Of a stretch of 64,000 nt of DNA, positions 10,665-46,826 are shown piece by piece (the stretch's first letter is position 1; every line of letters starts with the position of its first letter). Source of the DNA: a virus; the UHGV virus genome UHGV-0197549; one strand, written 5' to 3'. A program made the translations under genes and the position numbers. The notes under the pieces are model-generated. The model made no database searches, was not told the DNA's origin, and was given only the letters and a program-made list of their open reading frames with translations.

Positions 10665-11120
10665 TCATTTCTTTTCTTCGTAGCCTTCAACCTGCTTCAT
10701 CACCATGTTGCAGAAGGTCTGTCCGGCATCCGTGTATTGGCTGAAATACCGTATCATCTTGAAGAAGTTGAATTTAAACTCGCCCCACTTTCCGTAATAG
10801 TGGGCGCCCATCACGTTGCCATAGGATTTCCGGAACAGTTCCGGCGTCAGCCCTTCCGTCGCCCGGACACAATTATAGTCCCAGTTTGCGATCCGGAGCA
10901 TAAGCCGGAAATTCAGCGGTTGGATTTTCCAGGTACCTGAACAGTGTTCCCCGGTTTCTTCTTCGGTAAACTCACCGGAATCGGCATCTTCTGCCAAATT
11001 ATTGAAAATAACCTCCTTCACGGAATCCGGAATAAATTCAAGCTCTTCGCCTTCAGGAGTGGTGGTGAAGTCCACCTGGATAGTGTGGCCGTAATATAGT
11101 TCGGTTAATATTTGTCTCAT
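10665..11120 (-). CDS. hypothetical protein (151 aa)
   Basis: ORF in co-directional tight array. Confidence 0.4.
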   Translation of the reverse strand: MRQILTELYYGHTIQVDFTTTPEGEELEFIPDSVKEVIFNNLAEDADSGEFTEEETGEHCSGTWKIQPLNFRLMLRIANWDYNCVRATEGLTPELFRKSYGNVMGAHYYGKWGEFKFNFFKMIRYFSQYTDAGQTFCNMVMKQVEGYEEKK

Positions 11121-11157
11121 TGTCAGTTGGTTTTAAAAACTTTTTGTTTTTATTTGA

Positions 11158-11568
11158 TTAATCACAAAAATCCGTTGTACAATATGTTTCAAAATAGCTC
11201 TCACAGATAAGTTGATTCCATTCGGCATCACTACCCAAACTATCCCGTAAGTATCCGTAAGTTCGCATTAATTCAAGCCGCTCTTCCTCGTCTATATCGT
11301 CAATATTAATATCACCGGAGCACCAGAGTCGCCCATTGGAGATAAATTCCTTTACTTCCGAGACAACTGAAGATAAACGGATCAGTTCTTCCGGATAGCC
11401 ACCCAATATGTCGTAAATGATTCGCTCGGTAGAGTCCGATTCAGGCAACAGTTTGTCGTGGCAACAGTTCGGCTCGCAATACCAGAACTCCTTATCGGAA
11501 AGTGGCAGGCAGAACTGGAGCGTATCGGGGTCGGTAAATTCGATGTTGGGATTGAGTAGGTTTTTCAT
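11158..11568 (-). CDS. hypothetical acidic protein (136 aa)
   Basis: ORF; acidic stretches (NIDDIDEEERLEL). Confidence 0.4.
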   Translation of the reverse strand: MKNLLNPNIEFTDPDTLQFCLPLSDKEFWYCEPNCCHDKLLPESDSTERIIYDILGGYPEELIRLSSVVSEVKEFISNGRLWCSGDINIDDIDEEERLELMRTYGYLRDSLGSDAEWNQLICESYFETYCTTDFCD

Positions 11569-11601
11569 TTTAGAGTTTCTGTATTTTAAAGCTTTAGAAT
11601 T

Positions 11602-12078
11602 TTAGTGCTCGAATGATTTTTCTGTCAGATAATTAATCTTTAGCTCTTTACATACCATCCAATTGATGTTGTCAAGGCTGTACTGGCAATGGCAGGCCAG
11701 GAAAGTTTCAATCATATCGCTATCGTCAGACATCTTTGTCGTGATAATGTCCACTTCGTTTGTTTCCTGGCACAAGACAGCAATGGTGATTACCTGCTCT
11801 TCCGGGATATTCAGACTTTTGATGAGCAAGCTAATCTCATCCTTGCTCTGTTCATTTGACAGCCATATTTCAAAGGTCTTGTAGGTGACGGCATCTTCCA
11901 GAATAGTTTCATAGTCATCTGAACTTAAACCTACCCAGTCATCGTCATCTCCGTACTCCTTGCACATGATATCAATGTGATGTTTTTCACTGATACTTTG
12001 CTCTCCCTTGTCGGGGTTTAGTAAGTATAGGGCTTCCGTACGTGTAAGGGATATATCAAAGTTTGTTTCTTTAGTCAT
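11602..12078 (-). CDS. hypothetical acidic protein (158 aa)
   Basis: ORF; KEYGDDDDWVGLSSDDYETILED. Confidence 0.4.
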   Translation of the reverse strand: MTKETNFDISLTRTEALYLLNPDKGEQSISEKHHIDIMCKEYGDDDDWVGLSSDDYETILEDAVTYKTFEIWLSNEQSKDEISLLIKSLNIPEEQVITIAVLCQETNEVDIITTKMSDDSDMIETFLACHCQYSLDNINWMVCKELKINYLTEKSFEH

Positions 12079-12212
12079 TTCCTTTGTTTTAAATTTCTTG
12101 TATTACTTTCTTTGCCTTCTTCGCTTTTCTTACTTAAAATTGGTAGTCTACGACTTTGCATACTTCCAGAATCAGACCGTTAATTGACAGCAATTCGCCT
12201 TCAATTATTTCA

Positions 12213-12608
12213 CTACAATAGCTCATCTAATTCTTTCATTATATCAGCTTTGGTAGCATAGGCACGCAAACCAAGTAATTGAATAAACAGCTTGCGGTCA
12301 ATCATTTTAACTCCGCTATATTGGGCAACGTAATTCTGCAACAAACTAATAATAGAAGGTGCCAGCCTATGCCTGTTGTCCTGAACTTGTAAACTACACT
12401 GTATTAACTCGCCTAATTCACCCCTTGCATCATATTCATTAATGACTCCACCTATTCTAATTTGTTCATATATGAACTTTCCTTCATCTATTTCGTCGAC
12501 TTTCTCACATAAGCTTGTAAAAAAGTTTTCGTCAATAATTTGTGATAAAATATCATTCTTTACCATCTCTTTGAAGGATTCTATCTGTTTCGCTGTATAC
12601 CGTTTCAT
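12213..12608 (-). CDS. hypothetical protein (131 aa)
   Basis: ORF. Confidence 0.4.
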   Translation of the reverse strand: MKRYTAKQIESFKEMVKNDILSQIIDENFFTSLCEKVDEIDEGKFIYEQIRIGGVINEYDARGELGELIQCSLQVQDNRHRLAPSIISLLQNYVAQYSGVKMIDRKLFIQLLGLRAYATKADIMKELDELL

Positions 12609-12614
12609 TTGGTT

Positions 12615-13025
12615 TCATTCCTCCGTATTCAGTCTGGCTTCAAAGCCTTTAATCACCTCAGATGCAACGTTGCATAACTCCACCTGCTGCTGGAAATAAC
12701 GTGTCTTGAAACGGCGGTGCAGGAACAGTCTGAAACAACGCCATTTCCAGCGGATTTTCCATGTATGGGGGTACTCTCTTTTCCGGGCATTCAGATAAAA
12801 GGCACGATGGGAACAACTACTAAGAAGGCGCATCAACCTGTAGCGCGTGACACCTTCATTGCCTGTATCGGACATGTGATCCCTGACCAATCCGTAAAGG
12901 AGGTCAAAGTCAGGCGAGGATTTCAGGTAAAACTCCCGGAAAACAGTGTTTTTATTATTCTTCCACTCTTCCGGAGTACTGGGATAAGGCTCTTGCTTGA
13001 AGAGGTTCACTATTTTATTTATCAT
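12615..13025 (-). CDS. hypothetical basic protein (136 aa)
   Basis: ORF. Confidence 0.4.
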   Translation of the reverse strand: MINKIVNLFKQEPYPSTPEEWKNNKNTVFREFYLKSSPDFDLLYGLVRDHMSDTGNEGVTRYRLMRLLSSCSHRAFYLNARKREYPHTWKIRWKWRCFRLFLHRRFKTRYFQQQVELCNVASEVIKGFEARLNTEE

Positions 13026-13327
13026 TGCTGTTTATTGTTACGTTGATATAATTGCCCTTCCTTGGTCACCCTTATGTATCTTTTAGCTCTTGTAAAGGGA
13101 CTGGAGCAACATTTGTTCTTATTCACTTTAGGCTTGTCACATCCACAAGAACTGCCGGAACAACTGCCGAACAGACTGTGGATGCACATGTAGTATCTCT
13201 CGGGGGATTGATTGGCCGGCATAGTATGAAGGTAATTTAATATATTAGTAGGTTCTTGATTCTTAAGATTGTTTAGATTTCGGCAGCTTGCCCGGTTAAC
13301 TGTTGCAGCGAAAACTGGTTTGTCCAA
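13022..13327 (-). CDS. hypothetical Cys-rich small protein
   Basis: ORF; CSGSSCGCDKPKVNKNKCC. Confidence 0.3.
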   Translation of the reverse strand: MDKPVFAATVNRASCRNLNNLKNQEPTNILNYLHTMPANQSPERYYMCIHSLFGSCSGSSCGCDKPKVNKNKCCSSPFTRAKRYIRVTKEGQLYQRNNKQQ

Positions 13328-13737
13328 AATTCCTCGTTTGTATGTTTGCCGAACACTTGGTATATAGCATTGCCATCACGATATATCACGATCTTGAAAA
13401 AGTCCAATCTGTTTTCGGGGGAAGCCAGTTTGTCCAGTTCATCGTCATCCAGTTCCACATATACCCAATCTCTGTCTGCCAACAATTCTTCTATGTTCAG
13501 CTCTTCGACCAGCTCATCGTCCAATCCGGATTGGAAAAATTCTACCGAACCGTCATGAAACCTTATTGACTGGAAATTGTAATCGTCTTTGAAGGGCTTG
13601 ACGGCCTCAAGCCTCGTTGCCTGTAGCCTCCTCCATTCTTCCGACAAATGTATAACTGCGAAATCGCAGCAATCCCACTCGCTGTTCGTTTTTGCCCTGA
13701 TTAGAATTTCTGCTGTCGGCTTGTCTGATACTTTCAT
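13273..13737 (-). CDS. hypothetical acidic protein (154 aa)
   Basis: ORF; ELNIEELLADRDWVYVELDDDELD. Confidence 0.4.
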   Translation of the reverse strand: MKVSDKPTAEILIRAKTNSEWDCCDFAVIHLSEEWRRLQATRLEAVKPFKDDYNFQSIRFHDGSVEFFQSGLDDELVEELNIEELLADRDWVYVELDDDELDKLASPENRLDFFKIVIYRDGNAIYQVFGKHTNEEFWTNQFSLQQLTGQAAEI

Positions 13738-13782
13738 TGATTTGAATTTTAATTGTTTATGGATTAGTATGTAATTGATAGG

Positions 13783-14898
13783 TTATATCCCCTTTAGGTT
13801 TAGTCCTTCCAGCGCTCTTCTGGTGGCATCCACCGCATTGGGCGTTATTATTCGCTGCCATGCCCCACTGGTCGGTGCCCAATTGAATGAAAAGTCACGG
13901 TTGAGCCTGTTGAGCATTGTGTAGTCCGGCTTCTCATCAAAGAAAATCTGGATACGCTTTATCTCATAATTCAGTACTACTTTGCCACCGTCAAAAGGAC
14001 ATTCCTTGTTCCCCATGCCGGCAAGCTTTTCCTGTTGCTCTTTTACCTTGCGTGCCACCTCTGAAAGCTGGAAGAACTTGTGGCGTTCGGTGATGATCGG
14101 TTTCTTTTCCCTTGCGTTCCACTCCCGGATGTATGCCAGCGCCTTGTCTACAATTTCCACCTCACCGTGAGAGGCAAAAGTGCTCACCTTATTATAGATG
14201 CTGGAGACGAACAAGGGTTTGGAAGAACATCTGTTTATACCGGTGTTGATTTCATGGATGGTGGCTGCGCTACTGCCAATAGCATTGCGCAGCCTTTTCC
14301 AGTCTTCGTCCTTCTTCTGCTCTTCCGGTTTCCCTGCTTCGATACGTTTTGCGATAGCTTTCAAAGCACGTTCGCGCCACTCGGTAAACTCTTCCGACCG
14401 TTTCTGGTAAGACTCGTTCGCCTTTTCATTCCTGCGGTGATTGAAGTTTGCAGCACCCGTAACAAATGTGCTTGCACACCGGGAACTGGCGGCAAGCATG
14501 GCGGAGTAATGCTGTTTGAAGTTCTGAATATATTGCTCGCGTTCACCTTCCGGCATCTTCATCAGATCATAATGAAGTGTCTTTTCGTATGCGACAATGG
14601 AGTCTTCGCCGAGTATGTCCGGGTCTTGTGAGGTGTTGCGATACGCATCCTGCGCCTGTTGCCAGTAACATCCCAGATAATCGGGGTAATGGAACCTCAC
14701 GACTTCCCATTGCGGATAGTTATCTTTAGACACCGGAGTGGCGGCATCATCTTCTCCTATGGTATGCAGGTGGTTGCGGAAGCCTAATCGCTGTCCTCTG
14801 TAATTGAACCGGGAAGGCTCGCTTTGCGGGTTATCCACAGGGCGAACGTTTTTAACGCGGTGTGCGTTTTGGGCGGTTAATAAGATAGGTTGATTCAT
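13783..14898 (-). CDS. hypothetical protein (371 aa)
   Basis: Long ORF; no catalytic motif recognised. Confidence 0.5.
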   Translation of the reverse strand: MNQPILLTAQNAHRVKNVRPVDNPQSEPSRFNYRGQRLGFRNHLHTIGEDDAATPVSKDNYPQWEVVRFHYPDYLGCYWQQAQDAYRNTSQDPDILGEDSIVAYEKTLHYDLMKMPEGEREQYIQNFKQHYSAMLAASSRCASTFVTGAANFNHRRNEKANESYQKRSEEFTEWRERALKAIAKRIEAGKPEEQKKDEDWKRLRNAIGSSAATIHEINTGINRCSSKPLFVSSIYNKVSTFASHGEVEIVDKALAYIREWNAREKKPIITERHKFFQLSEVARKVKEQQEKLAGMGNKECPFDGGKVVLNYEIKRIQIFFDEKPDYTMLNRLNRDFSFNWAPTSGAWQRIITPNAVDATRRALEGLNLKGI

Positions 14899-14913
14899 TG
14901 TTGTGCTCTTTGA

Positions 14914-15201
14914 TTATTTTACGTTATTTTTACTTTGAGCCTTTAATGCTTGTCTTGCTTCCCATACTTTTTGTGCTCTTTGTATTCTCTTTTTGGGACT
15001 CAATTTTTTACATGTTTGACAATAGGCGATAACCCTCTGTGAATCATATTCTTCTCTTGTGATAGGTTCACCACAACATTCGCACACATAAGTTACACTC
15101 ATATTCTTAATAATTATATAGTTAATATTTTCTTTACCACACCATACTATGTTGATTGAGGGCGTATGTATTCCCTTGAAATTCAGATGTTTTTTCGGCA
15201 T
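14914..15201 (-). CDS. small zinc-ribbon protein
   Basis: CECCGEP...CQTCKK. Confidence 0.4.
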   Translation of the reverse strand: MPKKHLNFKGIHTPSINIVWCGKENINYIIIKNMSVTYVCECCGEPITREEYDSQRVIAYCQTCKKLSPKKRIQRAQKVWEARQALKAQSKNNVK

Positions 15202-15252
15202 CCAAGAACAATGTGATTACCGGCGGGGGCATGGCTTTATCGGCTTGATTTG

Positions 15253-15303
15253 ATGCCTCCAGCTTGATGGAGGTGCCCTGGCATTTGCAGTGGGCACCTC
15301 CTG
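15253..15303. promoter_or_regulatory. two overlapping, mutually exclusive hairpins sharing the GGAGGTGCC segment
   Basis: GCCTCCA-gcttga-TGGAGGTGC and GGAGGTGCC-15 nt-GGCACCTCC cannot form together; they sit in a 330-bp intergenic region. Confidence 0.3.
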
Positions 15304-15531
15304 AATATATGGAGGCAGCAACTAAATTTCCCGGTCCCTCACATTATGCCTGCCAGGCATAAGAAAGGATGTGACTGACAATCGGGGTATGTCTTTACTG
15401 ATTAGATGCATGGTCTTCTGTTGAATCAGGAGACAACAAGCCTGTAGGCTTTGTATCCTGATTTATTAAAGAAGACGATCTGAAATATATTGGCCCGTCA
15501 CATCGTGCTTACCAAGCAATGAAGATATTTA

Positions 15532-16680
15532 TTATTTCTTCTTACGCCACTCGGCCATCTTCTTCTTGATGTCGATGTTGTTGTCAGCCAGCATCTTCTT
15601 CAGGACTGCCAGCAAACGCCATCCTTCACCGTTCGCATACATCATTGCCTTAATCCGGAGGAAATCCAGAGACTGAGTTTTATCCAGACGGTTTTCTCCA
15701 TCATCGTAAGCTACACACCCATGGAAACGGATAAGGTTTTGCATAGTGAAGTATGCTCCCGAACCCTTGTAGGCGTCTATCCATGCTTTACTTTGCGGAG
15801 TATCGAACGCCATCTTGATGCGAAGGTTATTAAAGATTCTGGCGGCATTATAAAGCTGGGCGGCATTCTTCGCTTGTCTGATGCGTGCCATTGCCATATC
15901 GAGCGGGTAATACAGTTTGATTGCCAAATCCGACACGAAAATATTGCGGCTGCATATACGTTTGTAAGGAATGCCTTTACAATTCCTGACTTTCAAAGCA
16001 TCCACACGCTCTTTAAGCTGTATTGTATAATCTCTTGCCATCGCCTCCACTACATTGGTATTGAACCACCGGTTACGCTCGATGAAGCTCTCCGGGTCCT
16101 TGCTTTCCATCTTCATCTGTGCGTACAACTCGTTCATCAGCATCTTCCACTGGTACTCATAGCCCAGGCGATGTATCATCTCAGTCACACCCAGCGGTTC
16201 TTTGGAACGATATGCTGTCTCGGACATCATGTGGAACATCTTGGACATTACCCAACGGCGGAACAGGTGACCGTTCGGAACCGTCCCCTGGGAGATGATT
16301 ATGTCGAAAAGCGGGTCGTTGTCATTCAGCACGACAAGCTTGCCGCCTTTGTTGGATGCGATACACTCGCCGCCATTCGCTCCCCGCATGGCGAACAGGC
16401 AGCTTACATCCACACCTGCATTGCGTAGCGCCTCGATGCGTTCGTCCGCTTTTTCAGGTAGCTTGGCAGGTGCAGTCTTTTTTTCGACGACTGCGGGAAA
16501 GATTACTCCCAGGCCCGAGTCTTCACCGATCACTGTTGCCACGGTCGTAAATTCGTTCTTCGCAATAGCGAACTCCGTGCCGCACCCGGGGCACAATACC
16601 TTAGTCCCTCTGGTCGCTTTGGTTACTTTCGTTCCTCTGGTCGCTTTCGTTCCTCTTGTTTCTTTTTTCTTACTGTTCAT
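15532..16680 (-). CDS. hypothetical protein with N-terminal TRGTKA/V peptide repeats and a CxxC motif
   Basis: N-terminus ETRGTKATRGTKVTKATRGTKVLCPGCGTEF. Confidence 0.5.
   Translation of the reverse strand: MNSKKKETRGTKATRGTKVTKATRGTKVLCPGCGTEFAIAKNEFTTVATVIGEDSGLGVIFPAVVEKKTAPAKLPEKADERIEALRNAGVDVSCLFAMRGANGGECIASNKGGKLVVLNDNDPLFDIIISQGTVPNGHLFRRWVMSKMFHMMSETAYRSKEPLGVTEMIHRLGYEYQWKMLMNELYAQMKMESKDPESFIERNRWFNTNVVEAMARDYTIQLKERVDALKVRNCKGIPYKRICSRNIFVSDLAIKLYYPLDMAMARIRQAKNAAQLYNAARIFNNLRIKMAFDTPQSKAWIDAYKGSGAYFTMQNLIRFHGCVAYDDGENRLDKTQSLDFLRIKAMMYANGEGWRLLAVLKKMLADNNIDIKKKMAEWRKKK
16600..16665. repeat. tandem ~21-bp DNA repeats encoding the TRGTKA peptide repeats
   Basis: cctctggtcgctttggttactttcgtt / cctctggtcgctttcgtt. 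Confidence 0.55.
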
Positions 16681-16699
16681 TTGTTAAATTATTGATTGG

Positions 16700-17236
16700 T
16701 TAATTGTTATTGGATTCTATCTTTTCTATCCAGTTTCTTAGTATCACAAGGTCTTTATCCTTACTGCTCTGCCAGAACCATTTGCCCATCGTTTCCGGAT
16801 TCCATTTGATTCCACCCAATATCTGGCAGAGGACATATAATTCAAGTTCGACTTGAGCCTTGTCACGGCGTTCACCGAAAAGCATGGCGTCGTCGTTCAG
16901 GCTCTTTTCAGGCAATGCCATGAAGTACCGCCGTGACTTGCTCTCGCTCCGTTCTGAAGGGACTGAGTGCTTGTAGATGCGGTAGAGTTCTTCCACATTG
17001 GCAAGAAACTCGTCCTCGCTGCAACATGGCACGCCCAGTTCGCCCTCGTACTTGCCATCTTGTATGATAGGCTTGCCGTTTAGTTTCAGGCTTCGGGAAC
17101 GGAAATCAATCTTGAAGCTTGTGCCACCCTCGACGGCTTGGATGGCTTTCTGATAGATACACTGACATTGATTGTTGCTGTTATTGTCCATATTTTCTCG
17201 GTTGTCAATTTTATTAATTATTACACTCAAGGTCAC
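16700..17236 (-). CDS. hypothetical protein (178 aa)
   Basis: ORF. Confidence 0.4.
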   Translation of the reverse strand: MTLSVIINKIDNRENMDNNSNNQCQCIYQKAIQAVEGGTSFKIDFRSRSLKLNGKPIIQDGKYEGELGVPCCSEDEFLANVEELYRIYKHSVPSERSESKSRRYFMALPEKSLNDDAMLFGERRDKAQVELELYVLCQILGGIKWNPETMGKWFWQSSKDKDLVILRNWIEKIESNNN

Positions 17237-17621
17237 GGCGCATTACTTTATAATTCTGATGAATACAGGATGTACTGTATCCTGGAACCTCGGTTATAAC
17301 CAGGTGCCAGGATACAAATGAAATACTGTATGCTGAATCTGATCCCTTGTGCAATACTTGGTTGCGCTACCATACCTTTACCTCTTCTTTTTTCAGTCTC
17401 ATTAGGTTGGCACATTACTTTACTGATTTGATATGACCAGCGTGTAAATACTGGCGGACCACGACAATCGGGAGTCGGTCCCCAGTAGTTTTCAGGCTGA
17501 ACCATTAAAGCCCTGATCTTGACTGGTTGCTTTGTGCTAAGCTTACTTTTATTTGCGGTTCTCAAAATACCGGCACATTTCTTTATACATCTGATGTTTG
17601 CCGTGGCTGGGAAGCCGTAAC

Positions 17622-17661
17622 GGCGCCGGCGGAGTGCTCAGTAGAGAGTTCCGCCGGCGCC
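17622..17661. other. perfect 11-bp GC-only stem-loop (GGCGCCGGCGG...CCGCCGGCGCC) inside the non-coding tract 3' of the RT
   Basis: Seen directly; no T-run on either strand, so it is not an intrinsic terminator. Confidence 0.5.
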
Positions 17662-17792
17662 AAGGAGGCTTATTGTACACGGCATACTAAATATTATTCC
17701 TTGAACCATACTTCTTTTCTTATTTTTTTTCTTCTTTTGTGCTAAGAAGAGAAAGCTCTCATAACAGCGACACATTGCTATACGCTCTTGAT

Positions 17793-17888
17793 ATGTCCCG
17801 CGTATTCCAGCTCCATAAAGAGTCTGAAGGCGGTGGATTAACGGCCTTCAAGACTCTGCATGAGCTGGATTCCGCACGCGGGATATTA
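17793..17888. other. ~95-nt compound hairpin (three nested helices), candidate structured RNA
   Basis: tcccgcg/cgcggga, tccagctc/gagctgga and agagtctgaaggc/gccttcaagactct pair as nested arms. Confidence 0.35.
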
Positions 17889-18125
17889 ATTGTTGTTCCT
17901 TGAGCTTCATTGATGTGTTTCAGTATTATTATTTATTATGATGTCAAGCAAGCGACACAATTCTTTAAATTCTTGATATTTACAGGAATGAACCAGAATT
18001 TAACTGAGATCGACCGGGAGCTAAACCGGTTGATCTCGTATGAATTCTGGTATACTAAGCCTGTAACATTAAATGCCTTGCACCTTCATCATCCACCGTG
18101 TGTTCGGTAAGTTCCTATAATGTTC

Positions 18126-19442
18126 CTATAATGATGCGACCAAAGTATTGTACACAGCCCGTCTTGTCAATATGGCATTCTGCATACAGCCAAGGGTCAG
18201 ATACCCCGGGATGCCCCCCACGGTCTTGCCCCGGTTGGCTTTAACGTTACGCCCCAGCCCCCGGACTATGCAACCGTCACTCTTTGTTTTGACGTACCCT
18301 AAGCCGCCCACCTTGCGCTTTCCAGTCTGCACCGCTCTCAGGCAGTCCATCACGAACTTGTTTAATTCGTCGAGGTCTTTCCTCACGTTGCATACCGGAA
18401 GTATCTGCGTAGCCCAGCTAAACTCCCCGTTACCTTTGTAGAGGTAGCGGTTTACAGCGTTAATGGCTTTTGTCAGCGTTATTCCCGGCTTGCGGATTGT
18501 GCGTTTCTCTATTTCATGCTGAAACGTTTTGATACGGCTGGAGGATAAGGAGATCATGCTGCCTTTGATACTGAACCCAAGAAACTTGAACCACTTGTCC
18601 ATAGTCAAATATTCAACCTTCTTCGGGTTTAGCTTCATCGTCTTCTCTTCCAACCGGCTCTGGAGCACGCTCATGGCTTTCCCGTATTCTTCCCCGACAA
18701 ACAACATGTCGTCAGAGTATCGTGTGTAGAAACCATCCATTTGAGACAGTTCTTCGTCAAGGTCATACAGCAATACATCGGCAAGCCAGCTTGCCACAGC
18801 GCACCCTTGCTTGAGGGACTGGTATTGACGCAGGAGGTTGTTATCCTCATCGAAGTATAAATCACAGTGGTAGTATTTCCGCAGCACATCAATCAAAGCG
18901 GAATGACCATGCTGCGCTTCCACCTTGTCGAACGCTTCGTCTATGTATTGAACAGGCACACTATCGAAATATTTGCTGAGGTCTGATTTCCAGCCAAAGT
19001 ATCCGTCTTTTTCAGTGGCTACCATTTTATTACTGACTTCGGTCACAACCTTACCACAACCAATCTTTGTTTGGTAGGATTTACACGAGACATGAACCAT
19101 CTCGGGCATCAGATCGAAAAGCAAGTCATTGGCGATGCTTAATATCACCCGGTCAATGGGTTCATTCACGTAAACCGTGCGGAACTCACCGTTTTCTTTT
19201 GGTATCTGGGCGGTGTGGGGAGGTGAAATCTCATACTTACCCTTCCTCATGGCATCAGCAATCGCTATCCGGGTGTTCTCGCCGGTCAGCAATATAAGCT
19301 GGTCCTTCCGAATGTCCTTACCTACACCTTTCTCTATGGCTTTCGTCCACCGGTCAATATCGAAGAACATCTGTAAAATCTTGTCAATCTTATCTATCTT
19401 GTCTGGCATAATCCGTAGTGTTGGTTTCTTTTGTAATATCAC
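18126..19442 (-). CDS. reverse transcriptase (RT domains 0-7 plus thumb; group II/retron-like; family undetermined)
   Basis: IPKENGEFRTV (motif 1), EPIDRVILSIANDLL (2), DLSKYFDSV (3), LKQGCAVASWLADVLLYDLD (4), YTRYSDD (YxDD, motif 5), LNPKKVEY (6), FKFLGF (7); thumb-like AINAVNRYLYKG. Confidence 0.85.
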   Translation of the reverse strand: MILQKKPTLRIMPDKIDKIDKILQMFFDIDRWTKAIEKGVGKDIRKDQLILLTGENTRIAIADAMRKGKYEISPPHTAQIPKENGEFRTVYVNEPIDRVILSIANDLLFDLMPEMVHVSCKSYQTKIGCGKVVTEVSNKMVATEKDGYFGWKSDLSKYFDSVPVQYIDEAFDKVEAQHGHSALIDVLRKYYHCDLYFDEDNNLLRQYQSLKQGCAVASWLADVLLYDLDEELSQMDGFYTRYSDDMLFVGEEYGKAMSVLQSRLEEKTMKLNPKKVEYLTMDKWFKFLGFSIKGSMISLSSSRIKTFQHEIEKRTIRKPGITLTKAINAVNRYLYKGNGEFSWATQILPVCNVRKDLDELNKFVMDCLRAVQTGKRKVGGLGYVKTKSDGCIVRGLGRNVKANRGKTVGGIPGYLTLGCMQNAILTRRAVYNTLVASL

Positions 19443-19902
19443 TCTTGTCTAAGATTATTCTCACTCCATTGACCATCCCCAAATGCCTTAAATACACTTC
19501 GTCGGGATAAACATGTCTTTCATCGCCGCCGTGTATTTTCATGGTATGGGAGCCGTCTATTTGAATATCGGTCCGGCCATATCCTGACGGAAACTTTTCA
19601 CCAACGAACACAAGCCTCTCAATGTGGGTATGCGCATCCGACACACATACAATATGGCATCCGTCTGTCCGGAGAAGGTGCTTATACTCCGGCTTCATCC
19701 GTTTCTCTCTGCACTCTTCAAGTTCTGCGGCAATATCAACATCACGACCAAAGTTTCTGCCTTTATAAATCGGAAGAGATAATTCATAATATCTTTGGGT
19801 ATTATTGGTTGATACCAATTTTGCTGTAATTTCTTTCATTTTTATTCTTATTTCAGTTCCACAATCTGATTGGCATTGCCACAAAGAGCACTGCGTAACC
19901 AT
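19390..19902 (-). CDS. hypothetical protein with weak metallophosphoesterase C-terminal-like motifs; overlaps the RT start
   Basis: CVSDAHTH...FVGEKFPSGYGR resembles GHTH...iNPGS; N-terminal phosphoesterase motifs absent; 3' end overlaps the RT start codon. Confidence 0.4.
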   Translation of the reverse strand: MVTQCSLWQCQSDCGTEIRIKMKEITAKLVSTNNTQRYYELSLPIYKGRNFGRDVDIAAELEECREKRMKPEYKHLLRTDGCHIVCVSDAHTHIERLVFVGEKFPSGYGRTDIQIDGSHTMKIHGGDERHVYPDEVYLRHLGMVNGVRIILDKSDITKETNTTDYARQDR

Positions 19903-19905
19903 TTT

Positions 19906-20328
19906 TTATGATTCCAATATCCGCTCAAAACTATTTATCTCTGTCACGATGAAATCCTCACACCCAAAAGCTGCCAGCGATTTGAGCCCGTTCAAAGATT
20001 GGCAGTAGAAAAACATGTCGTCATCCTCGCCGGTATCTCCCGAGAGCTGGATTTTTACCTCTTGGCTACCGTCCGTGTCCTTCCACACAATTTCGCAGTT
20101 CGCATAATGTGGCTCCTTGCCGTTATTCTTGACGAACTCATCAAACTTCTTCTGCATTTCCACCTGTATCTCGTCCGTGTCGGATATGATGACTCCCGTT
20201 TTGCAGTTCTCGCACCAACCGTACAGGAATGCTTCATCGGTATAATTCTGAAATTCCTTAGTGTTGGGATTTATCATGGCTTCACAGGAAACATCCGTGC
20301 CGCTGCATCTTGTGCATATTACATTCAT
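19906..20328 (-). CDS. zinc-ribbon protein with acidic C-terminus
   Basis: CTRCSG...WCENC; 4-bp spacing to the downstream gene. Confidence 0.45.
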   Translation of the reverse strand: MNVICTRCSGTDVSCEAMINPNTKEFQNYTDEAFLYGWCENCKTGVIISDTDEIQVEMQKKFDEFVKNNGKEPHYANCEIVWKDTDGSQEVKIQLSGDTGEDDDMFFYCQSLNGLKSLAAFGCEDFIVTEINSFERILES

Positions 20329-20359
20329 ATTCTTTTTCTTTGTGTTATTTGTTTATAAG

Positions 20360-20929
20360 TTAATTACCATTGCTATCATCGCTGCCATCAATCCCTTTCA
20401 GGTATGATTTAGGCAGAATCCTCACTATGCCGATAAGATATTCGATATTTCTATTACCGTAGTAACCGCTCATATCGAAGCGGTAGACAGGCGTTTTAGA
20501 GCGTCCATTTTTACCATCCAGACGAAAACAGGAAGGCAGCTTCTTTTTATCCTTGAATAAAATGCCACAAGCCTCTTGTGCGTCGTAGTTGTAATTTCTC
20601 ATCAGATAATTAATGTCAGACAATACCTGCAAAACCTCTTTGTTTTCTTTCAGGAAGAGCATTACTTTTTGTGTGCTGTTCCCGTTCTGCCACTCTTTAA
20701 ATTTGCAGGGCGTTCCCCTTTGGATAGAGGCGGCACGTTTCAACAGTTCTTCCTTATAGTCTCCCTCAAAATGATACGTACATTTATACCCGTGTTCATT
20801 TACCCTTTCAGCAACATATATATCATGATTGGCCGTATACCGGGTACGTCCAACCTTTCCGCTTCCGGAAATTATGGCAGTGTCTAATATGTTTGCCAGT
20901 TGCTTCTTTAAAGACATTTTACTTTTCAT
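20360..20929 (-). CDS. hypothetical protein (189 aa), first gene of the RT operon
   Basis: ORF; 32-bp gap to the next gene. Confidence 0.45.
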   Translation of the reverse strand: MKSKMSLKKQLANILDTAIISGSGKVGRTRYTANHDIYVAERVNEHGYKCTYHFEGDYKEELLKRAASIQRGTPCKFKEWQNGNSTQKVMLFLKENKEVLQVLSDINYLMRNYNYDAQEACGILFKDKKKLPSCFRLDGKNGRSKTPVYRFDMSGYYGNRNIEYLIGIVRILPKSYLKGIDGSDDSNGN

Positions 20930-20951
20930 GGTCTATTCCTTTCTGCGTTTA

Positions 20952-21161
20952 TCAACAAATTCTTATGTCATAGTCTTTGAAATAGTATTCCAGTTCTTTT
21001 AGCCCTTCCAGACTATGTAGAACATTCTTTCCGGTCACTGAGATATCTACAGATACACAGTATTCTTTTTGTATTTCAACTTCTGAACTATCGAAAACTT
21101 TTTTTACGCAATTGACAATATCAGAGGCGCTTAGTTTGTTTTTTACGATATTAAGTACCAT
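20952..21161 (-). CDS. small hypothetical protein (69 aa)
   Basis: ORF. Confidence 0.3.
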   Translation of the reverse strand: MVLNIVKNKLSASDIVNCVKKVFDSSEVEIQKEYCVSVDISVTGKNVLHSLEGLKELEYYFKDYDIRIC

Positions 21162-21429
21162 TTGTTTAATTTTTTAAGTTCTGATTTATTCGTTGTCACC
21201 CAGCACTCCTTCGCGGACAGACCCATATTTCATGTCATACTGAGGCAGGCGTAACGCAACCCTGCGAGTGAATAAGGTTTCACCAATCCCGTAACCTCTT
21301 TCAGATTTCCTTTCGGCGGCACATTCTCAAAGGGTTTGCATCGAAAACTAAGCCCTGCGCAATATTATCTTCGTGACTGTTTTCAAGATAGAATTAAATT
21401 TGAAGAACTTCCAAATAACTGTTATTTGG

Positions 21430-22539
21430 TTATTTGTTTGCAGTTTTACGCAAGTTGCCATATAAGGGGTGAGTGCTCCGTTTCTTACGACCGGATGCCA
21501 TCTCCTTCATGACCGCCTTGTATATATTGTCGAAGTCTTCTTTCTTCAAGCGTGGGAAGAAGTCCGCATAGATAACCTCGAATACGCTAAGCCTGCCGTC
21601 CGGATTCAAAGAGAAGAAACTTCTCATTCTATCTTTTGCCTCTGCGAGTTGCCTCCGGGTGCAAGCTTCGGCAGCTTCCTTGATTGCCTTGGAGGGTTTG
21701 TTTTGCTTCCGTGTGTTTGGCTCGGCATACCGCTTTTCCGAACGAGGGAGAAAAGCATCGGAGAAAAAATCGGATCTGTAATCCCGACGCTGGGGACGCA
21801 CTTCCTTATGAGTGTATACTTCACGGCAGTTCTCAACGATATGCTCCACAAGTGTGAGGCATTTCTTCAGATCGGCTATGTTTGTCATTTCGTGGGGAGT
21901 GTGCGGGTAATAATAACCGCATGAGATGTTAGCGCATGATATTTCCAGTCCTCTTTGGCGTAAGGTCTGGACATCGGTTTGCATCCCGCGTTCTTCCTTA
22001 TATCCATGCTCCCCGAGGGAAGCATCTTTTATAAACTGGGATGAGCAAAGAGGATTGCCGTAGATGTTGCTGATAAAGTCACTGTTCCCTTTTCGGTCGC
22101 ATTGGAGTACGAACCGGCAGTCATCGAAGAACTTCATGTCCGCCTGATGACTGCCGATACATCCTTGTTCCTCACCAACAAAGAATACACATTTCAGGTT
22201 ATCGAATTTCTCTAAGCATTTCAGACATACCCAGATGCCGTTCTTGTCATCAGCCCCGATACCGTTGAACTCACGTTTCCCGCTGTTGAAGCCGATAATG
22301 AACTCATCCCTGACAACCAGGACTTCGTAACCTTTTTCCCTCGCCTCATGCACTTCGTCCAGATGGGCGGCAATGCACGGGTAAGTATCAGCGTTGCCTT
22401 TGGTGGCATAGATATTACCAGTTTCGTCTACGGTAAAGGTTACGCCGAGGTCTGATAATCTTTGGGAAACGAACGCGATCATGTCTTTTTCCTGATGCGT
22501 GCGGGCTGAGATGCCATATAGTTCTTTCAATAATTCCAT
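21430..22539 (-). CDS. M20/M28/M42-type metallopeptidase-like protein with C-terminal basic extension
   Basis: Metal-ligand pattern AAHLDEV (HxD) ... GADDKNG ... GEEQG. Confidence 0.5.
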   Translation of the reverse strand: MELLKELYGISARTHQEKDMIAFVSQRLSDLGVTFTVDETGNIYATKGNADTYPCIAAHLDEVHEAREKGYEVLVVRDEFIIGFNSGKREFNGIGADDKNGIWVCLKCLEKFDNLKCVFFVGEEQGCIGSHQADMKFFDDCRFVLQCDRKGNSDFISNIYGNPLCSSQFIKDASLGEHGYKEERGMQTDVQTLRQRGLEISCANISCGYYYPHTPHEMTNIADLKKCLTLVEHIVENCREVYTHKEVRPQRRDYRSDFFSDAFLPRSEKRYAEPNTRKQNKPSKAIKEAAEACTRRQLAEAKDRMRSFFSLNPDGRLSVFEVIYADFFPRLKKEDFDNIYKAVMKEMASGRKKRSTHPLYGNLRKTANK

Positions 22540-22597
22540 GATGTATGTTTTTAATTTTTTGTTGGTGAGGATTCTTATATAACTGAACTGTGGGAGA

Positions 22598-23830
22598 CTA
22601 AGCCGTTATAAACAGCTTGGCGATTTGGAGGTTAAGTTCCAGATGTGCGGACGGTCTGCCTTTCTCGAAGAAACTGGCGGGATATTTCACGTCGTTGTAG
22701 CTCTTGACTTTATCCATCAGCATATCACCGAATATGGTTTTTGTGATAAGTCTTTTTTTGCATGTATAACACAAGTATTCACTATCGGTATGCACATCAC
22801 CGCAGTTTGGGCAGATATACCTGCATTGAGTGGCGATACCGGAAGTATTCTGGCACGTAGCTACACATCTTTCTGTTGATTCATTGGACAATTGCACTTT
22901 GCCGTCTTCAGTAATATTCACATAACAGAAGGTATCCAGGTAGGGCGTTCCTTTCTTATGCCATTTGGTGGCAGGTACGCAAATATTCAGGTTTTGGTCT
23001 ATTCTATCGCCTACCTCCATATCCACGCCTTCTATGGGGTTTAACACAGTAAACTGTATTCTGTGGGAGTAATCGTTATGTGTCTTTCTCAGGTTGATGC
23101 CGTTTTTCCGGGCATATTGGTATATCAGCTTCATCACAAAAGAGTGAGAATAGTACACCCGGTCTAATACGGACACTTCTTTTTCTTCCCCATCAAACTT
23201 TCCGACTGCCTTCTTCCAGACAATAGCACGTCCCAGCACATTATTTTCTGAATCTCTGGCGACAAGGACGCTTGCACCGGCAAAGTTGGAGTAGAAATCC
23301 CCCAGTCTGTATACGAGGTTGGAATATCTCATGCAGGAATTATGTAACACGCTGTTGTCACCATATTGGGCGAATGGAACATAGTTGTCGGCAATATAGG
23401 CATCAATGAAATCGTTCATCTTGTCATACAGTTTAATCTCCACCTTGCTGCTGACACAGATAGCGTTTGAGAAGTATTCAATGTCTTCACTGGAATAATC
23501 AGGCAAGTCCTTGAAATAGCTGATGAAAGTGGACGGCTCCAACTTGGTTCTGTTTTCCTCAAACCACGGCGCACGGGGATTCAGTCTGTCCGGGAAGTTC
23601 TCATTGTTCAGGTCTTTGGTACACGCCGACAATATAATCTTCATTTTGGTATATTCACCGGCATTGCTTTTAACTCGTTTGGAGTTGAAGTAGTTGGCTG
23701 TACCACGGATAACTTCCGTCACATCCTTGTTTTGTCTGAGTACTTCCAGAATGTCTGTTGCAATTACACTACCGTTGATTGATGCGAAATTAAGACGTGC
23801 TTTCAGCTCGTCATTTACGATTGTCTTCAT
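22598..23830 (-). CDS. hypothetical protein with C-terminal Cys-cluster zinc finger
   Basis: CRYICPNCG...CYTCKK. Confidence 0.5.
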   Translation of the reverse strand: MKTIVNDELKARLNFASINGSVIATDILEVLRQNKDVTEVIRGTANYFNSKRVKSNAGEYTKMKIILSACTKDLNNENFPDRLNPRAPWFEENRTKLEPSTFISYFKDLPDYSSEDIEYFSNAICVSSKVEIKLYDKMNDFIDAYIADNYVPFAQYGDNSVLHNSCMRYSNLVYRLGDFYSNFAGASVLVARDSENNVLGRAIVWKKAVGKFDGEEKEVSVLDRVYYSHSFVMKLIYQYARKNGINLRKTHNDYSHRIQFTVLNPIEGVDMEVGDRIDQNLNICVPATKWHKKGTPYLDTFCYVNITEDGKVQLSNESTERCVATCQNTSGIATQCRYICPNCGDVHTDSEYLCYTCKKRLITKTIFGDMLMDKVKSYNDVKYPASFFEKGRPSAHLELNLQIAKLFITA

Positions 23831-23887
23831 ACTTGTTTGATTTTAATTATTAATTGGTGATTAGTTATGATTCTTGTTGATTTCTTG

Positions 23888-24688
23888 TTATTTATGATTC
23901 AGTAATTCCTTGAGTAGTTTCGCCTCCGGGGAACGAAGAAGTTTGAGAGCCGCCTTGAGCTTGTCCGGTTTATCCTTGTAATAGTTCGTGAAGTAGCTAA
24001 TCTGCCGCTTCTTCACCAGAGCATATTTCTTCTGGATAATCGCTTCGACGGGGATGTACAGGCTATCACCTTCTTCGTTCACCTCCAGATAAACCTCATA
24101 CCCTTTGCGGTGGTAGCTTATCGGATATATTTTGAACTTCGACTCACACACCACATATTTCTTTTTAGTCGTGATCGGTAAGTCGTACCTTGCCGTGCGG
24201 AACGTCATGTTGCCATACTCCGCGATAATTTGGGCAAGCGTCATGTCCATCACCTGCAACTCAACCGTCCTTTCCGCAGTAAAGTCAGGGTGGAGAAATA
24301 TTTCGGGATAGCGTTTCTCAAGGAAGTAGCGGACAATTTTACTCTCCGCCTCGCCGATACACTGGGATGACACCGCATAGGCTGAGTAGTTGGTAAAGTA
24401 GGCATTGCCGTACTTGTCAAATTCCCTGCGCACCGCCGCATTATCCAGAATGGGCACACCGTAATGGTAGCCTTTGGGGTTAAAGTATTCGATGTCGAAC
24501 AGTTGGTTGTTCTGCAAATTCAACTCGCCGCAAGCCGCAAAATATTCGTCAGGCGTGACGCCAAGCATGTCACCAAGCTCACCGATTGCCGGGAGAACTT
24601 GTACGTACTTCGCCAGTTCAAGGGAGTTGATGTCAATCCCGACATGGCTCTCGAAGTTGCAGCGAGTTGTAGTATCATATAGTTTCAT
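23888..24688 (-). CDS. hypothetical protein (266 aa)
   Basis: ORF. Confidence 0.45.
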   Translation of the reverse strand: MKLYDTTTRCNFESHVGIDINSLELAKYVQVLPAIGELGDMLGVTPDEYFAACGELNLQNNQLFDIEYFNPKGYHYGVPILDNAAVRREFDKYGNAYFTNYSAYAVSSQCIGEAESKIVRYFLEKRYPEIFLHPDFTAERTVELQVMDMTLAQIIAEYGNMTFRTARYDLPITTKKKYVVCESKFKIYPISYHRKGYEVYLEVNEEGDSLYIPVEAIIQKKYALVKKRQISYFTNYYKDKPDKLKAALKLLRSPEAKLLKELLNHK

Positions 24689-24824
24689 ACCGTTGATTTT
24701 TATCGTTGATTACTATTTGTTGGTAATTCGGGTATATTCCATCCGTTTATCAGGTGTAGGCATAACTCGCCATGAAGCGGGTGAAAGCGAACGTGAAGTT
24801 TAAACTTCATTAACATTTTGCGGC

Positions 24825-25076
24825 TTAGAATGGTATATCGTGATAACCTACCCAATTGCCGTCCTTGTCGTAGTTGAGCGGGAACAGCTTCTTTTGGCAC
24901 TCAGGGCACATACCCGATATGATTGTCTCACGCTCAGGCATAGTCAGATACGGGAAGCAGTTCTGCGCCGGACTGCGCCCCTTTACTCGCTTGTTGTAGT
25001 CTTCTTCACGCACATAGATTACAGTGACCTTACCACACTGGTGGCAAAGCCGCTCTACCGGATAATTTCTTTCCAT
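24825..25076 (-). CDS. small zinc-ribbon protein
   Basis: CHQCG...CPECQKK. Confidence 0.4.
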   Translation of the reverse strand: MERNYPVERLCHQCGKVTVIYVREEDYNKRVKGRSPAQNCFPYLTMPERETIISGMCPECQKKLFPLNYDKDGNWVGYHDIPF

Positions 25077-43975: not shown

Positions 43976-44800
43976 CGCATCCTTTCGGTGCGGTTTCTTT
44001 TTTTTATGATGAAGCACTCTTCCTCTAAATTTATGCAGTTCAGTGCTTTTAACCCAAATACCATTAAACTTAGGATGAACCAAAACAAAAAAAATGAATA
44101 TTAGGACACATAAAAATGATAAGATTATAAAGCCAGGGACATACTTTTCAAACCAAACTTCATCCAATTGAAACTTATTTATATGCATAAAACAATGGAT
44201 TATAAAAGCAACGCACCATATAACAAACGAAATTTGGCCTATTGCAATATTTATTTTGGATGGAGAGTAAGCTCCACCTTGGCACTTAAAAATACAATCA
44301 TTTATATCTGTGGCATTGTATCCTTTTAAAAGCTGATACTGAAATCCTCCTATAGGTAATTTGTTTATTCCGGAATTAAGAACTTCGCCATTTACCAAAC
44401 TTTCATCACATTCAAAAGCATCAATAGCATGTTCATACCTCTCATACCAAGCTTTCGAACCTTTGGCCATCATAATCCAAAGAGAAGAAAATATAATATT
44501 AACTAAACATAGTACGAGAGCTATATTATTTAATATATAGGCTGACGGTGACACTACATATTCTACATTATCAAATAGTTTTATTGTAACAACTCCATAT
44601 CCGGTAAAACATAAAACAAGTATAGTCGTTAGAAATATAGAGCGTTGCCAAAGATGTGACAATTCAAAATCCCGACATCTCCATAAAGAATCTCTTATAT
44701 CCTTAGTTGTTATCTCAGAATTAAGAACAATATTATCAGTATTAATGGTGTATTTCAGTTTGCTTTTACTGCATTTTTCTCTTTTACTTCTTTTCCTCAT
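43964..44800 (-). CDS. low-GC multi-pass membrane protein (4 predicted TM helices), moron
   Basis: Hydrophobic segments IFLTTILVLCFTGYGVV, ILNNIALVLCLVNIIFSSLWI, ISFVIWCVAFIIHCF, GFIILSFLCVLIFIFFVLV; local GC far below the flanking structural genes. Confidence 0.6.
   Translation of the reverse strand: MRKRSKREKCSKSKLKYTINTDNIVLNSEITTKDIRDSLWRCRDFELSHLWQRSIFLTTILVLCFTGYGVVTIKLFDNVEYVVSPSAYILNNIALVLCLVNIIFSSLWIMMAKGSKAWYERYEHAIDAFECDESLVNGEVLNSGINKLPIGGFQYQLLKGYNATDINDCIFKCQGGAYSPSKINIAIGQISFVIWCVAFIIHCFMHINKFQLDEVWFEKYVPGFIILSFLCVLIFIFFVLVHPKFNGIWVKSTELHKFRGRVLHHKKKKPHRKDAISK
43976..44006 (+). terminator. rho-independent terminator after the tail tube gene
   Basis: CGCATC-cttt-GGTGCG followed by GTTTCTTTTTTTT. 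Confidence 0.55.
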
Positions 44801-44857
44801 ATTATTTATGATATATATTTTTACAAATGTAAATATATACCATTTTTATTAGAACAG

Positions 44858-46117: not shown

Positions 46118-46120
46118 ATT

Positions 46121-46573
46121 TTATCCCCTTTTCTTTCTTCTGTTTTCCTTGATCGTATGAGTTACGATACCCCAAACAATAAATTGATTATTCTCCGTTA
46201 CCTTTATCGAAGGATAATCGGGATTGGAAGGTACCAGCCATACAGTTTTCTTTCTTCTGTCTATTTTGACCCGTTTGAGTGTAAACTCTCCGTCCAGAAA
46301 GCAAACACATAAATCACCATCCTCCAAATCCAGCGATTTATCTATTATTAATAAATCACCCGGCTCTATCCCTTCGTCTTTCATCGAAAACCCTTTCACT
46401 CTCCCGATAAAGCTGGATGCAGGATTCTTTATAAGTTCCCTGTTCAGATCATAGCTTAGCTCCATGTAATCCTGCGCCGGTGAGGGGAATCCCGCTTGAA
46501 TCCCATCATCAGCGTAAGGTAATAATTGTTTGCTTGAAGCATCAATCCTGAATATTTCGAGCCAATTCTTCAT
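46121..46573 (-). CDS. umuD: UmuD-like S24 peptidase
   Basis: GFPSPAQDY motif; Ser (GFSMKDEG) and Lys (TLKRVK) catalytic dyad context; 3-bp spacing to umuC. Confidence 0.8.
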   Translation of the reverse strand: MKNWLEIFRIDASSKQLLPYADDGIQAGFPSPAQDYMELSYDLNRELIKNPASSFIGRVKGFSMKDEGIEPGDLLIIDKSLDLEDGDLCVCFLDGEFTLKRVKIDRRKKTVWLVPSNPDYPSIKVTENNQFIVWGIVTHTIKENRRKKRG

Positions 46574-46826
46574 CTGAAAGTGTTTTCGAAGATAACAATC
46601 CGGATTGAAATTTGATTCATGCTTAGGTATTATTGTGCTTCATTTACGAAATATTGATAAACGTTTCCTTCCAACTCTTAAAGGATTATCTGCATACACT
46701 AATACATTCGGGTATGAACTTACCAACAACCGCATCGGGAAGGAATCGAAAGTCCGATTCAACCTTTTCTGATTTGTTCCCCTATACTTGGAAAAGAACA
46801 TTAACCAATCTACAACCAACTTTTAT

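Follow-up and report, generated by a model that had tools for sequence, protein, structure and literature searches.

RESULTS AND DISCUSSION

A UG27 reverse transcriptase and its family

This analysis concerns a reverse transcriptase (RT) locus on the minus strand of a 64,000-nucleotide (nt) stretch of the virus genome UHGV-0197549, which is called the window below. The RT gene is followed by a long noncoding tract that carries a tandem array of noncoding RNA (ncRNA) modules, by the genes for the UG27-associated cluster 346 and cluster 337 proteins (as346 and as337), and by divergent module-like units. The RT open reading frame (ORF), at positions 18126 to 19442, encodes 438 amino acids (aa) when counted from the GTG at 19442, with its first ATG at 19409. 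An earlier note, made by reading the DNA without database searches, had described an RT with a catalytic YSDD box here, and both the ORF and the box are present in the translation; Pfam further recognized an RVT_1 domain (E value of 1.4e-19). Among the PADLOC profiles, RT_UG27 ranked first with 774 bits (E 6.7e-234), RT residues 19 to 438 covering positions 2 to 420 of a 420-position profile. The runners-up were UG26 (126 bits, 2.8e-37), UG17 (DRT10; 83 bits) and Drt9 (UG28; 80 bits), and the match to the DRT2 profile was distant (E 1e-12), with the C-terminal part alone aligned. By these matches the protein is a full-length UG27 RT, of the Class 2 UG/Abi, DRT-like lineage, and the hidden Markov model (HMM) classification that the earlier note had suggested places UG27 far ahead of the retron, group II intron and other UG/DRT profiles. 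UG27 was defined by Mestre et al. (2022, Nucleic Acids Res 50:6084; PMC9226505), who associated the group with clusters 346 and 337 and detected its members in 1,447 dereplicated gut phage genomes. The system is thus already known, and the present locus is an ordinary member of the family. Homologues of the RT were retrieved from 80 IMG/VR contigs (77 to 97% identity) and from 29 contigs of representative genomes.

The earlier note had favored a defence-type RT of retron, DRT or Abi kind, or else an anti-defence RT that has its own ncRNA. The UG/Abi part of that reading stands, including the DRT-like lineage and a cis-encoded structured ncRNA of its own, and the retron part does not: the best retron profile in PADLOC, RT_Ec107-like, reached only 2.6e-11, and the NCBIfam model retron_St85_RT scored 44.5 bits, under its cutoff of 235. 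The two exclusions made in the same note were borne out. The group II intron maturase profile TIGR04416 (NCBIfam) gave 87.3 bits, under its cutoff of 300, and no Rfam family, group II intron RNA domains included, matched at gathering score in the whole window. In an E-value scan of positions 16600 to 21200, chance-level matches only (mir-1011, CyaR) were returned up to E 5, with no intron domain and no retron-like RNA among them. As for a diversity-generating retroelement with a template repeat and a variable repeat, no direct repeat of at least 40 nt was found in positions 11000 to 25000, the single exception being a 47-nt pair of 70% identity that lies in unrelated DNA.

A perfect 11-nt tandem duplication (positions 18111 to 18133; GTTCCTATAAT on the plus strand, 2.1 copies) lies across the RT stop codon, just upstream of the first RNA module.

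Partner genes and the conserved unit

Two ORFs past the noncoding tract match profiles of UG27-associated proteins, and the RT is therefore not the orphan that it had been taken for. The nearer one, listed as 16700 to 17236 on the minus strand, extends to a GTG at 17236; since the profile match (PADLOC RTas346, 2e-70) begins at its residue 26, the real start is probably the ATG at 17191, giving a cluster 346 protein of 163 aa (16700 to 17191). The next, at 15532 to 16680 on the same strand, encodes the cluster 337 protein of 382 aa (PADLOC RTas337, 2.1e-150), with an N-terminal basic repeat and a CxxC motif followed by a helical C-terminal domain. An 18-nt tandem repeat at 16620 to 16665 (2.6 copies) encodes the basic TRGTKA/TKATRGTKV repeats of this N terminus, and homologues range from 352 to 382 aa in length. 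Profile, PHROGs and fold searches yielded no fold or family match for either protein. Some cluster 337 homologues, in Bacteroides xylanisolvens and Phocaeicola dorei, carry the NCBI name "ubiquitin carboxyl-hydrolase," to which the Pfam scan and the fold search lend no support.

Synteny was assessed by tblastn with every window protein against the 80 IMG/VR loci of the RT scan. The RT, the tract, as346 and as337 occur together in 75 of these 80 viral loci, and the remaining five contigs end just after the RT. Among the 29 genome loci, 19 have DNA that reaches past the tract, and both downstream genes are present in all 19; modules were found in 18 of them with an HMM of the conserved 3' motif and in the last (L103) with a pattern-based finder only. 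The conserved unit consists of the RT, the noncoding tract, as346 and as337.

On the other side of the RT lie three further ORFs, at 19390 to 19902 (170 aa), 19906 to 20328 (140 aa, called a zinc-ribbon protein in the earlier note) and 20360 to 20929 (189 aa). The earlier note had combined them with the RT into a four-gene operon that would form the functional system, the ncRNA trailing behind it. The four ORFs are indeed packed tightly on one strand, the layout is shared by the closest relatives (L001 to L003 and L081), and the 170-aa ORF does overlap the RT start as had been noted, its stop at 19390 giving an overlap of 53 nt (from GTG 19442) or 20 nt (from ATG 19409). However, counterparts of the three ORFs were found at just 6, 6 and 4 of the 80 loci that retain the RT, the array, as346 and as337, these being close relatives in every case; elsewhere the DNA 5' of the RT is unrelated. 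The conserved unit therefore excludes them. Searches of Pfam, NCBIfam, PADLOC and PHROGs with the upstream ORFs gave nothing convincing, the closest being a Pfam CGGC match of the 140-aa ORF that stayed below threshold (E 0.0018), and they lent no support to the metallophosphoesterase motifs that had been seen in the 170-aa ORF. It is accordingly true of the upstream ORFs that they resemble no known effector class, as the earlier note had said of the neighboring genes, but clusters 346 and 337 downstream had been overlooked. Judged by this distribution, the three upstream ORFs are most readily seen as lineage-specific phage cargo. An operon of the four as the functional system is largely refuted by synteny, and we consider it very improbable; the lower boundary drawn for it, at 17250, slices through the fifth RNA module and leaves out both partner genes.

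The noncoding tract is a tandem array of modules

The tract between the RT and as346 measures ~930 nt, from 18125 to the probable ATG at 17191, and contains no convincing coding ORF. A long gene-free tract 3' of the RT had already been pointed out, together with the remark that its absence or lack of conservation in homologous loci would speak against the reading proposed; the tract is conserved in every complete related locus. A repeat search within it disclosed four to five copies of a 36- to 47-nt motif, spaced every 160 to 200 nt, plus a second repeated motif (families D1 to D3). Together with an HMM and with the covariation described below, these repeats define an array of five tandem modules in RT sense, each ~150 to 190 nt long, with approximate limits of 17221 to 18108 on the minus strand. 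Each module has a mini-hairpin (P0), a long hairpin (P2) and a conserved 3' motif. Module 1 (17937 to 18108) has P0 at 18108 to 18095 with loop AACACA, P2 at ~18066 to 17980 and the 3' motif ATCAAGAATTTAAAGAATTGTGTC. The same elements lie in module 2 (17752 to 17922) at 17922 to 17911 (loop AACACA) and ~17883 to 17796, with motif ATCAAGAGCGTATAGCAATGTGTC, and in module 3 (17556 to 17748) at 17748 to 17732 (loop AGCACAA) and ~17687 to 17596, with motif ATCAGATGTATAAAGAAATGTGCC. For module 4 (17394 to 17542) they are found at 17542 to 17529 (loop AGCACA) and ~17499 to 17438, followed by ATCAAATCAGTAAAGTAATGTGCC, and for module 5 (17221 to 17372) at 17372 to 17359 (loop AGCGCA) and ~17331 to 17263, followed by ATCAGAATTATAAAGTAATGCGCC; in this last module, loop and motif show a compensatory G-C pair. 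Module 5 overlaps the listed GTG (17236) of the cluster 346 ORF and ends ~30 nt ahead of the ATG at 17191.

Three hairpins that the earlier note had listed in this tract all exist where they were placed, but they are not isolated structures. The 11-base-pair (bp) all-GC stem at 17622 to 17661 (GGCGCCGGCGG/CCGCCGGCGCC) forms the apex of the module 3 P2, the compound hairpin at ~17793 to 17888 is the module 2 P2 (inverted repeats I3, I8, I9 and I10), and the hairpin at 18007 to 18038 is the inner part of inverted repeat I1, paired at 11 of 12 positions, at the apex of the module 1 P2. Modules 4 and 5, as well as the repeated flanking motifs, had been missed.

The array was recovered with an independent HMM of the 3' motif, built from loci whose RTs are at most ~87% identical, with the window and its close relatives excluded: applied to the 64-kb window, this model detected exactly these five, each lying on the minus strand (E values between 9e-13 and 3e-6). 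Across relatives, nhmmer with the 3'-motif HMM found 255 modules in 49 distinct RT-to-as346 spacers, whose length varies from 840 to 1560 nt among complete loci; a model of the short 5' motif had poor sensitivity. Most loci hold five modules and some six or seven, and in the few where four were detected, a gap fits one missed module. Positional identity is kept in the order 1-2-3-4-5, and extra modules arise as a duplicate of type 4 (1-2-3-4-4-5) or of types 3 and 4 (1-2-3-4-3-4-5). The number can differ even between near relatives, as L001, with an RT 97% identical to that of the window, has six modules compared with the five described here. Tandem Repeats Finder did not detect the array, because the copies are too divergent. 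The idea that the P2 hairpins were copied from elsewhere in the window was rejected, as only chance matches of 9 to 15 nt (E of at least 0.2) were obtained, and megablast of positions 15500 to 21000 against GenBank phages gave no match.

Covariation supports a pseudoknotted module fold

The fold was analyzed in an alignment of 71 non-redundant modules in which the distal part of the long hairpin had been replaced by GAAA. P0 is a mini-hairpin of 3 to 5 bp at the 5' end of the module, with a loop that is typically GCACA. Unprompted, RNAalifold proposed a 5-bp pairing of this loop with UGUGC in the conserved 3' motif, and compensatory changes were seen at three of its positions (GC45/AU22/GU3, AU57/GC13 and AU65/GC5). 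This pairing crosses the closing helices and is therefore a pseudoknot. P1 and P1', the two helices that close the module, flank a conserved AA/GA internal loop. P2 is 58 to 113 nt long, and its sequence is specific to the position of the module in the array; for each position the hairpins are 91 to 97% paired with 3 to 8 compensatory pairs, yet the position-specific sequence is conserved as well. Between P2 and the pseudoknot helix runs a strand of ~20 nt with an invariant unpaired AUC, then ~7 nt, then UA(A)AG.

Pair counts for a five-helix model (P0, pseudoknot, P1, P1' and P2 base) were compared with shuffled alignments and with partners slid by 1 to 3 columns. In the model 84.6% of cells are paired, against 61.7% after shuffling (none of 500 shuffles reached the observed value) and 30 to 44% in the slid controls; the covariation score was 0.565 versus 0.188, and both-side changes occur in 26 of 29 pairs. 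The pseudoknot helix is 98.9% paired. This evidence is strongest in the comparison with slid partners and in the fact that RNAalifold arrived at the pseudoknot unprompted; covariation in the aligned sequences shows the predicted module fold, with P0, the pseudoknot, P1, P1' and the P2 base.

A strict signature, consisting of the 3' motif and a perfectly complementary 5-mer in the upstream hairpin, has 296 matches in the spacers of 73 distinct loci, compared with 11 same-strand matches elsewhere and 7 in reverse orientation, over 0.76 Mb. Sixteen different pseudoknot 5-mers were encountered. Pairing of the P0 loop with the motif of the previous module was rejected, since only 38 of 161 such loops are perfectly complementary; the pairing is thus intra-module, and neighbors usually differ in pseudoknot sequence. 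Pairing of the 5' junction (AUUYAAY) with UAAAG was also dropped, as no covariation was apparent by eye.

These data bear on whether the repeats act as DNA, for example as origin iterons, recombination sites or protein-binding palindromes. Such a role would suit the long inverted repeats and the regular ~170-bp repeats of the tract, and a primase-like gene lies nearby (13783 to 14898), but covariation keeps pairing over sequence, the long-range pseudoknot and the G·U pairs included, and the orientation is always that of the RT (296 forward versus 7 reverse signature matches). The first P1' pair, for instance, is GU in 49 of the 71 sequences, and as frequent G·U pairs become A·C on the other strand, they favor an RNA on the RT-sense strand rather than a DNA element. 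A DNA-level function is in our estimation hardly credible.

A retron is the other established arrangement that comes to mind, each module then being a combined msr/msd ncRNA. Retrons likewise couple an RT and accessory proteins to an adjacent structured ncRNA of 150 to 200 nt with a long hairpin and closing repeats, and the modules fit in size, in their long hairpin and in their closing inverted repeats (P1, comparable to a1/a2). The RT, however, belongs to another clade, with 774 bits for UG27 against E values of ~1e-11 for the retron profiles and an NCBIfam score far from the cutoff, and Rfam offered nothing retron-like across the locus. The order of the motifs is also reversed, since in the modules the long hairpin comes first and the conserved motif after it, while in a retron msr precedes msd; in addition, the ncRNA is a tandem array. 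To our knowledge, no retron has tandem ncRNAs. That the modules are retron ncRNAs is therefore most improbable.

Rearranged architectures and variant units in relatives

Beyond the loci most similar to the window, the same parts recur in other arrangements. In two loci (L100 and L104, RT 69 to 71% identical) arrays lie both before as346 and after as337, with nine motif matches in L100. In L103 (3995 to 5611) and in nine independent IMG/VR contigs (L110 to L118), a single ORF of ~535 aa joins the RT to the C-terminal half of as346, and the joined segment shows 43% identity over as346 residues 66 to 156 (E 9e-21); the modules detected in this clade mostly sit before and after as337. A permuted order, as346-as337-RT, was observed in nine loci (L126, L129, L130, L132, L133, L136, L145, L152 and L153), and in the four inspected, module-like motifs with a diverged 3' motif follow the RT. 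L129 and L133 offered only two module candidates, and ORFs were called across that region; the L119 group, in which the motif is a variant one, carries six modules or more. The iterated nhmmer search did not reach the divergent clades. Because the co-occurrence survives rearrangement, and because the RT and cluster 346 can be fused, this comparison argues that the RT, the array and clusters 346 and 337 act jointly and that cluster 346 would contact the RT.

Directly after cluster 337 in the window, positions 15202 to 15531 on the minus strand hold two divergent module-like units (m6 and m7). This stretch of 330 nt has an RNA fold z-score of -4.58, and its counterpart after as337 is conserved at 73 to 99% nucleotide identity, as one or two units, in many loci. 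The 3'-motif HMM gave one weak match there (15249 to 15230, E 0.04), and the module-like helices of the units were read by eye only. In the second unit, GGCAU of the 3' arm of the 5' hairpin has two potential partners, the 5' arm of that hairpin and AUGCC in the 3' motif, an alternative that might be a switch.

The host element

All genes from ~13.7 to 24.7 kb lie on the minus strand, and PHROGs matches in the window include a portal, a prohead protease, a capsid-like protein, a tail sheath, a tape measure, a tail fibre and an anti-repressor-like protein. The UG27 system also occurs in the chromosomes of representative genomes, namely, those of Bacteroides thetaiotaomicron, B. oleiciplenus, B. 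neonati, B. gallinarum (twice), B. graminisolvens, B. ndongoniae, Phocaeicola coprophilus and Alistipes; cultured carriers include Bacteroides oleiciplenus YIT 12058, Phocaeicola coprophilus DSM 18228 and Bacteroides gallinarum DSM 18171. Given phage structural genes in the window and the same system inside Bacteroidales chromosomes, the element is a temperate tailed phage of Bacteroidales. The primase-like protein (371 aa, 13783 to 14898, minus strand; PHROG "primase," 7e-21) has relatives in 51 of the 80 UG27 loci, usually upstream of the RT, compared with its downstream position in the window, and is probably a phage replication protein outside the UG27 system. Farther away, a low-GC island at 44000 to 47000 (31 to 43%, versus ~52% in the flanks) separates the tail sheath gene from the tape-measure gene. 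A DNA polymerase is encoded within it on the minus strand (phrog_1268, 6e-150), and the island has the look of cargo that was inserted.

A proposed role for the modules

The explanation that we favor, and hold to be probable, is that the locus is a UG27 system of a temperate phage, made up of the RT, a five-module ncRNA, clusters 346 and 337 and the variant modules, in which the modules would dock the RT and template its activity. Its firm ground is the family membership of the three proteins, the synteny across clades and the module fold. Class 2 UG RTs rely on a cis-encoded ncRNA in which two anchoring stem-loops frame a short template (bioRxiv 10.64898/2026.06.29.735271). By analogy, each module may dock one RT through its conserved core, and a short single-stranded segment framed by two helices may serve as an internal template for complementary DNA (cDNA), as in DRT2, DRT3, DRT9 and DRT10. 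The best candidate for both the docking and the template site would be the strand between P2 and the pseudoknot helix, because its geometry matches a template framed by two anchoring stem-loops. Cluster 346 would then be an RT cofactor, and cluster 337 might handle the product or act as an effector. The array could assemble several RTs on one RNA, or it could specify several products. UG27 is reportedly also treated in a preprint dated 24 September 2026, which may already cover the RNA architecture. That the ncRNA is a covalent array of five to nine autonomous pseudoknotted modules, each recruiting an RT, so that a particle with several RTs would be assembled in cis or different cDNAs would be made, and that this has not already been laid out in that preprint, is a combination that we regard as possible, though doubtful. 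For the phage, the benefit could lie in superinfection exclusion, anti-defence or control of the life cycle.

Several points weigh against this explanation. Template use is proposed by analogy, and a conserved A-B-A' microhomology, sought across modules in the candidate template stretch, was not seen. The roles given to the two accessory proteins are guesses, as neither protein matched a fold or family. Co-transcription of the RT, the array and both downstream genes is suggested by their shared strand and tight spacing, and scans for sigma-70 promoters, intrinsic terminators and the Bacteroides -7 element (TAnnTTTG) all remained at chance level. As to the fold, only 67% of P1' cells pair when one register is used throughout, as the register varies with module type; moreover, the covariation set mixes paralogous and orthologous modules, the distal P2 was trimmed manually, and the P2-base pairs were taken from single-sequence folds. 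Finally, UG27 is not enriched in defence islands (Mestre et al. 2022, PMC9226505).

The junction of module 1 in the window (17977 to 17954, minus strand) does read ATC-AAGAATT-TA-AAGAATT-GTGTC, with a 7-nt direct repeat resembling the A-B-A' layout of DRT10. It was rejected as a template signature, since module 1 of other loci lacks it.

The missing A-B-A' signature leads to the question of whether the modules are structured RNAs that do not template the RT at all, but instead bind proteins as scaffolds or decoys, or control clusters 346 and 337 in the manner of cis-regulatory leaders, while the RT uses another substrate or no template. Protein recognition would suit a position-specific P2 that keeps its sequence as well as its structure, and a leader would suit an array that directly precedes as346, with module 5 ending so close to the ATG. 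On the other hand, every characterized Class 2 UG RT templates on its own cis-encoded ncRNA, the array follows the RT when the gene order is permuted to as346-as337-RT (in the four loci inspected), and a regulatory leader has no need of five to nine copies. We therefore consider a purely non-templating role unlikely and retain docking and templating of the RT as the preferred explanation.

Relation to known systems and significance

The locus agrees with the description of UG27 by Mestre et al. (2022, PMC9226505) in that the RT and clusters 346 and 337 match the family profiles, the tract is conserved between the RT and cluster 346, the carriers are gut phages of Bacteroidetes, and the accessory proteins have no identifiable domain. 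In that study the ncRNA was described as one putative RNA with "three long stem-loops," and an addiction or anti-defence role was suggested (PMC9226505). The description given here differs in that the RNA is resolved into five to seven tandem pseudoknotted modules, with split arrays of up to nine in other clades. It also adds the variant units that follow cluster 337, the fusions of the RT to cluster 346 and the changes in gene order. The module array, the post-337 units, the fusion clade and the permuted orders go beyond the description of Mestre et al.; newness of the RNA architecture is not claimed.

DRT9 (UG28) and DRT10 (UG17), which give the nearest RT profiles after the uncharacterized UG26, share with UG27 a cis-encoded structured ncRNA, an RT without a fused extra domain and a plausible template between two helices. 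They differ in having single-unit ncRNAs (in a 6:6 complex with the RT for DRT9 and 2:1 for DRT10), whereas several non-identical units are covalently joined in UG27, and in their accessory genes, such as SLATT in DRT10. Both serve in host defence, whereas UG27 is carried by phages and shows no enrichment in defence islands. DRT2 (UG2) is likewise a Class 2 RT with a cis-encoded ncRNA whose structure sets the template; its ncRNA, however, is a single unit 5' of the RT and undergoes rolling-circle reverse transcription into a gene (neo), of which there is no sign in the window.

A practical lesson is that hairpins behind an RT that looks like an orphan call for a comparison with UG/DRT profiles and for an inspection of both sides of the noncoding tract. 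The list of parts assembled here, comprising the RT, a pseudoknotted RNA built of modules whose helices and invariant nucleotides are defined, clusters 346 and 337 and the post-337 variant modules, makes the system testable, and since cultured carriers have been identified, pseudoknot compensation, module deletion and cDNA sequencing can be designed directly. UG27 is the one large UG/Abi group that lives in phages and not in host defence islands. If its modules do recruit several RTs, UG27 would represent the use of a Class 2 UG RT by phages outside host defence, with an RNA organization unreported for DRT2, DRT3, DRT9 and DRT10.

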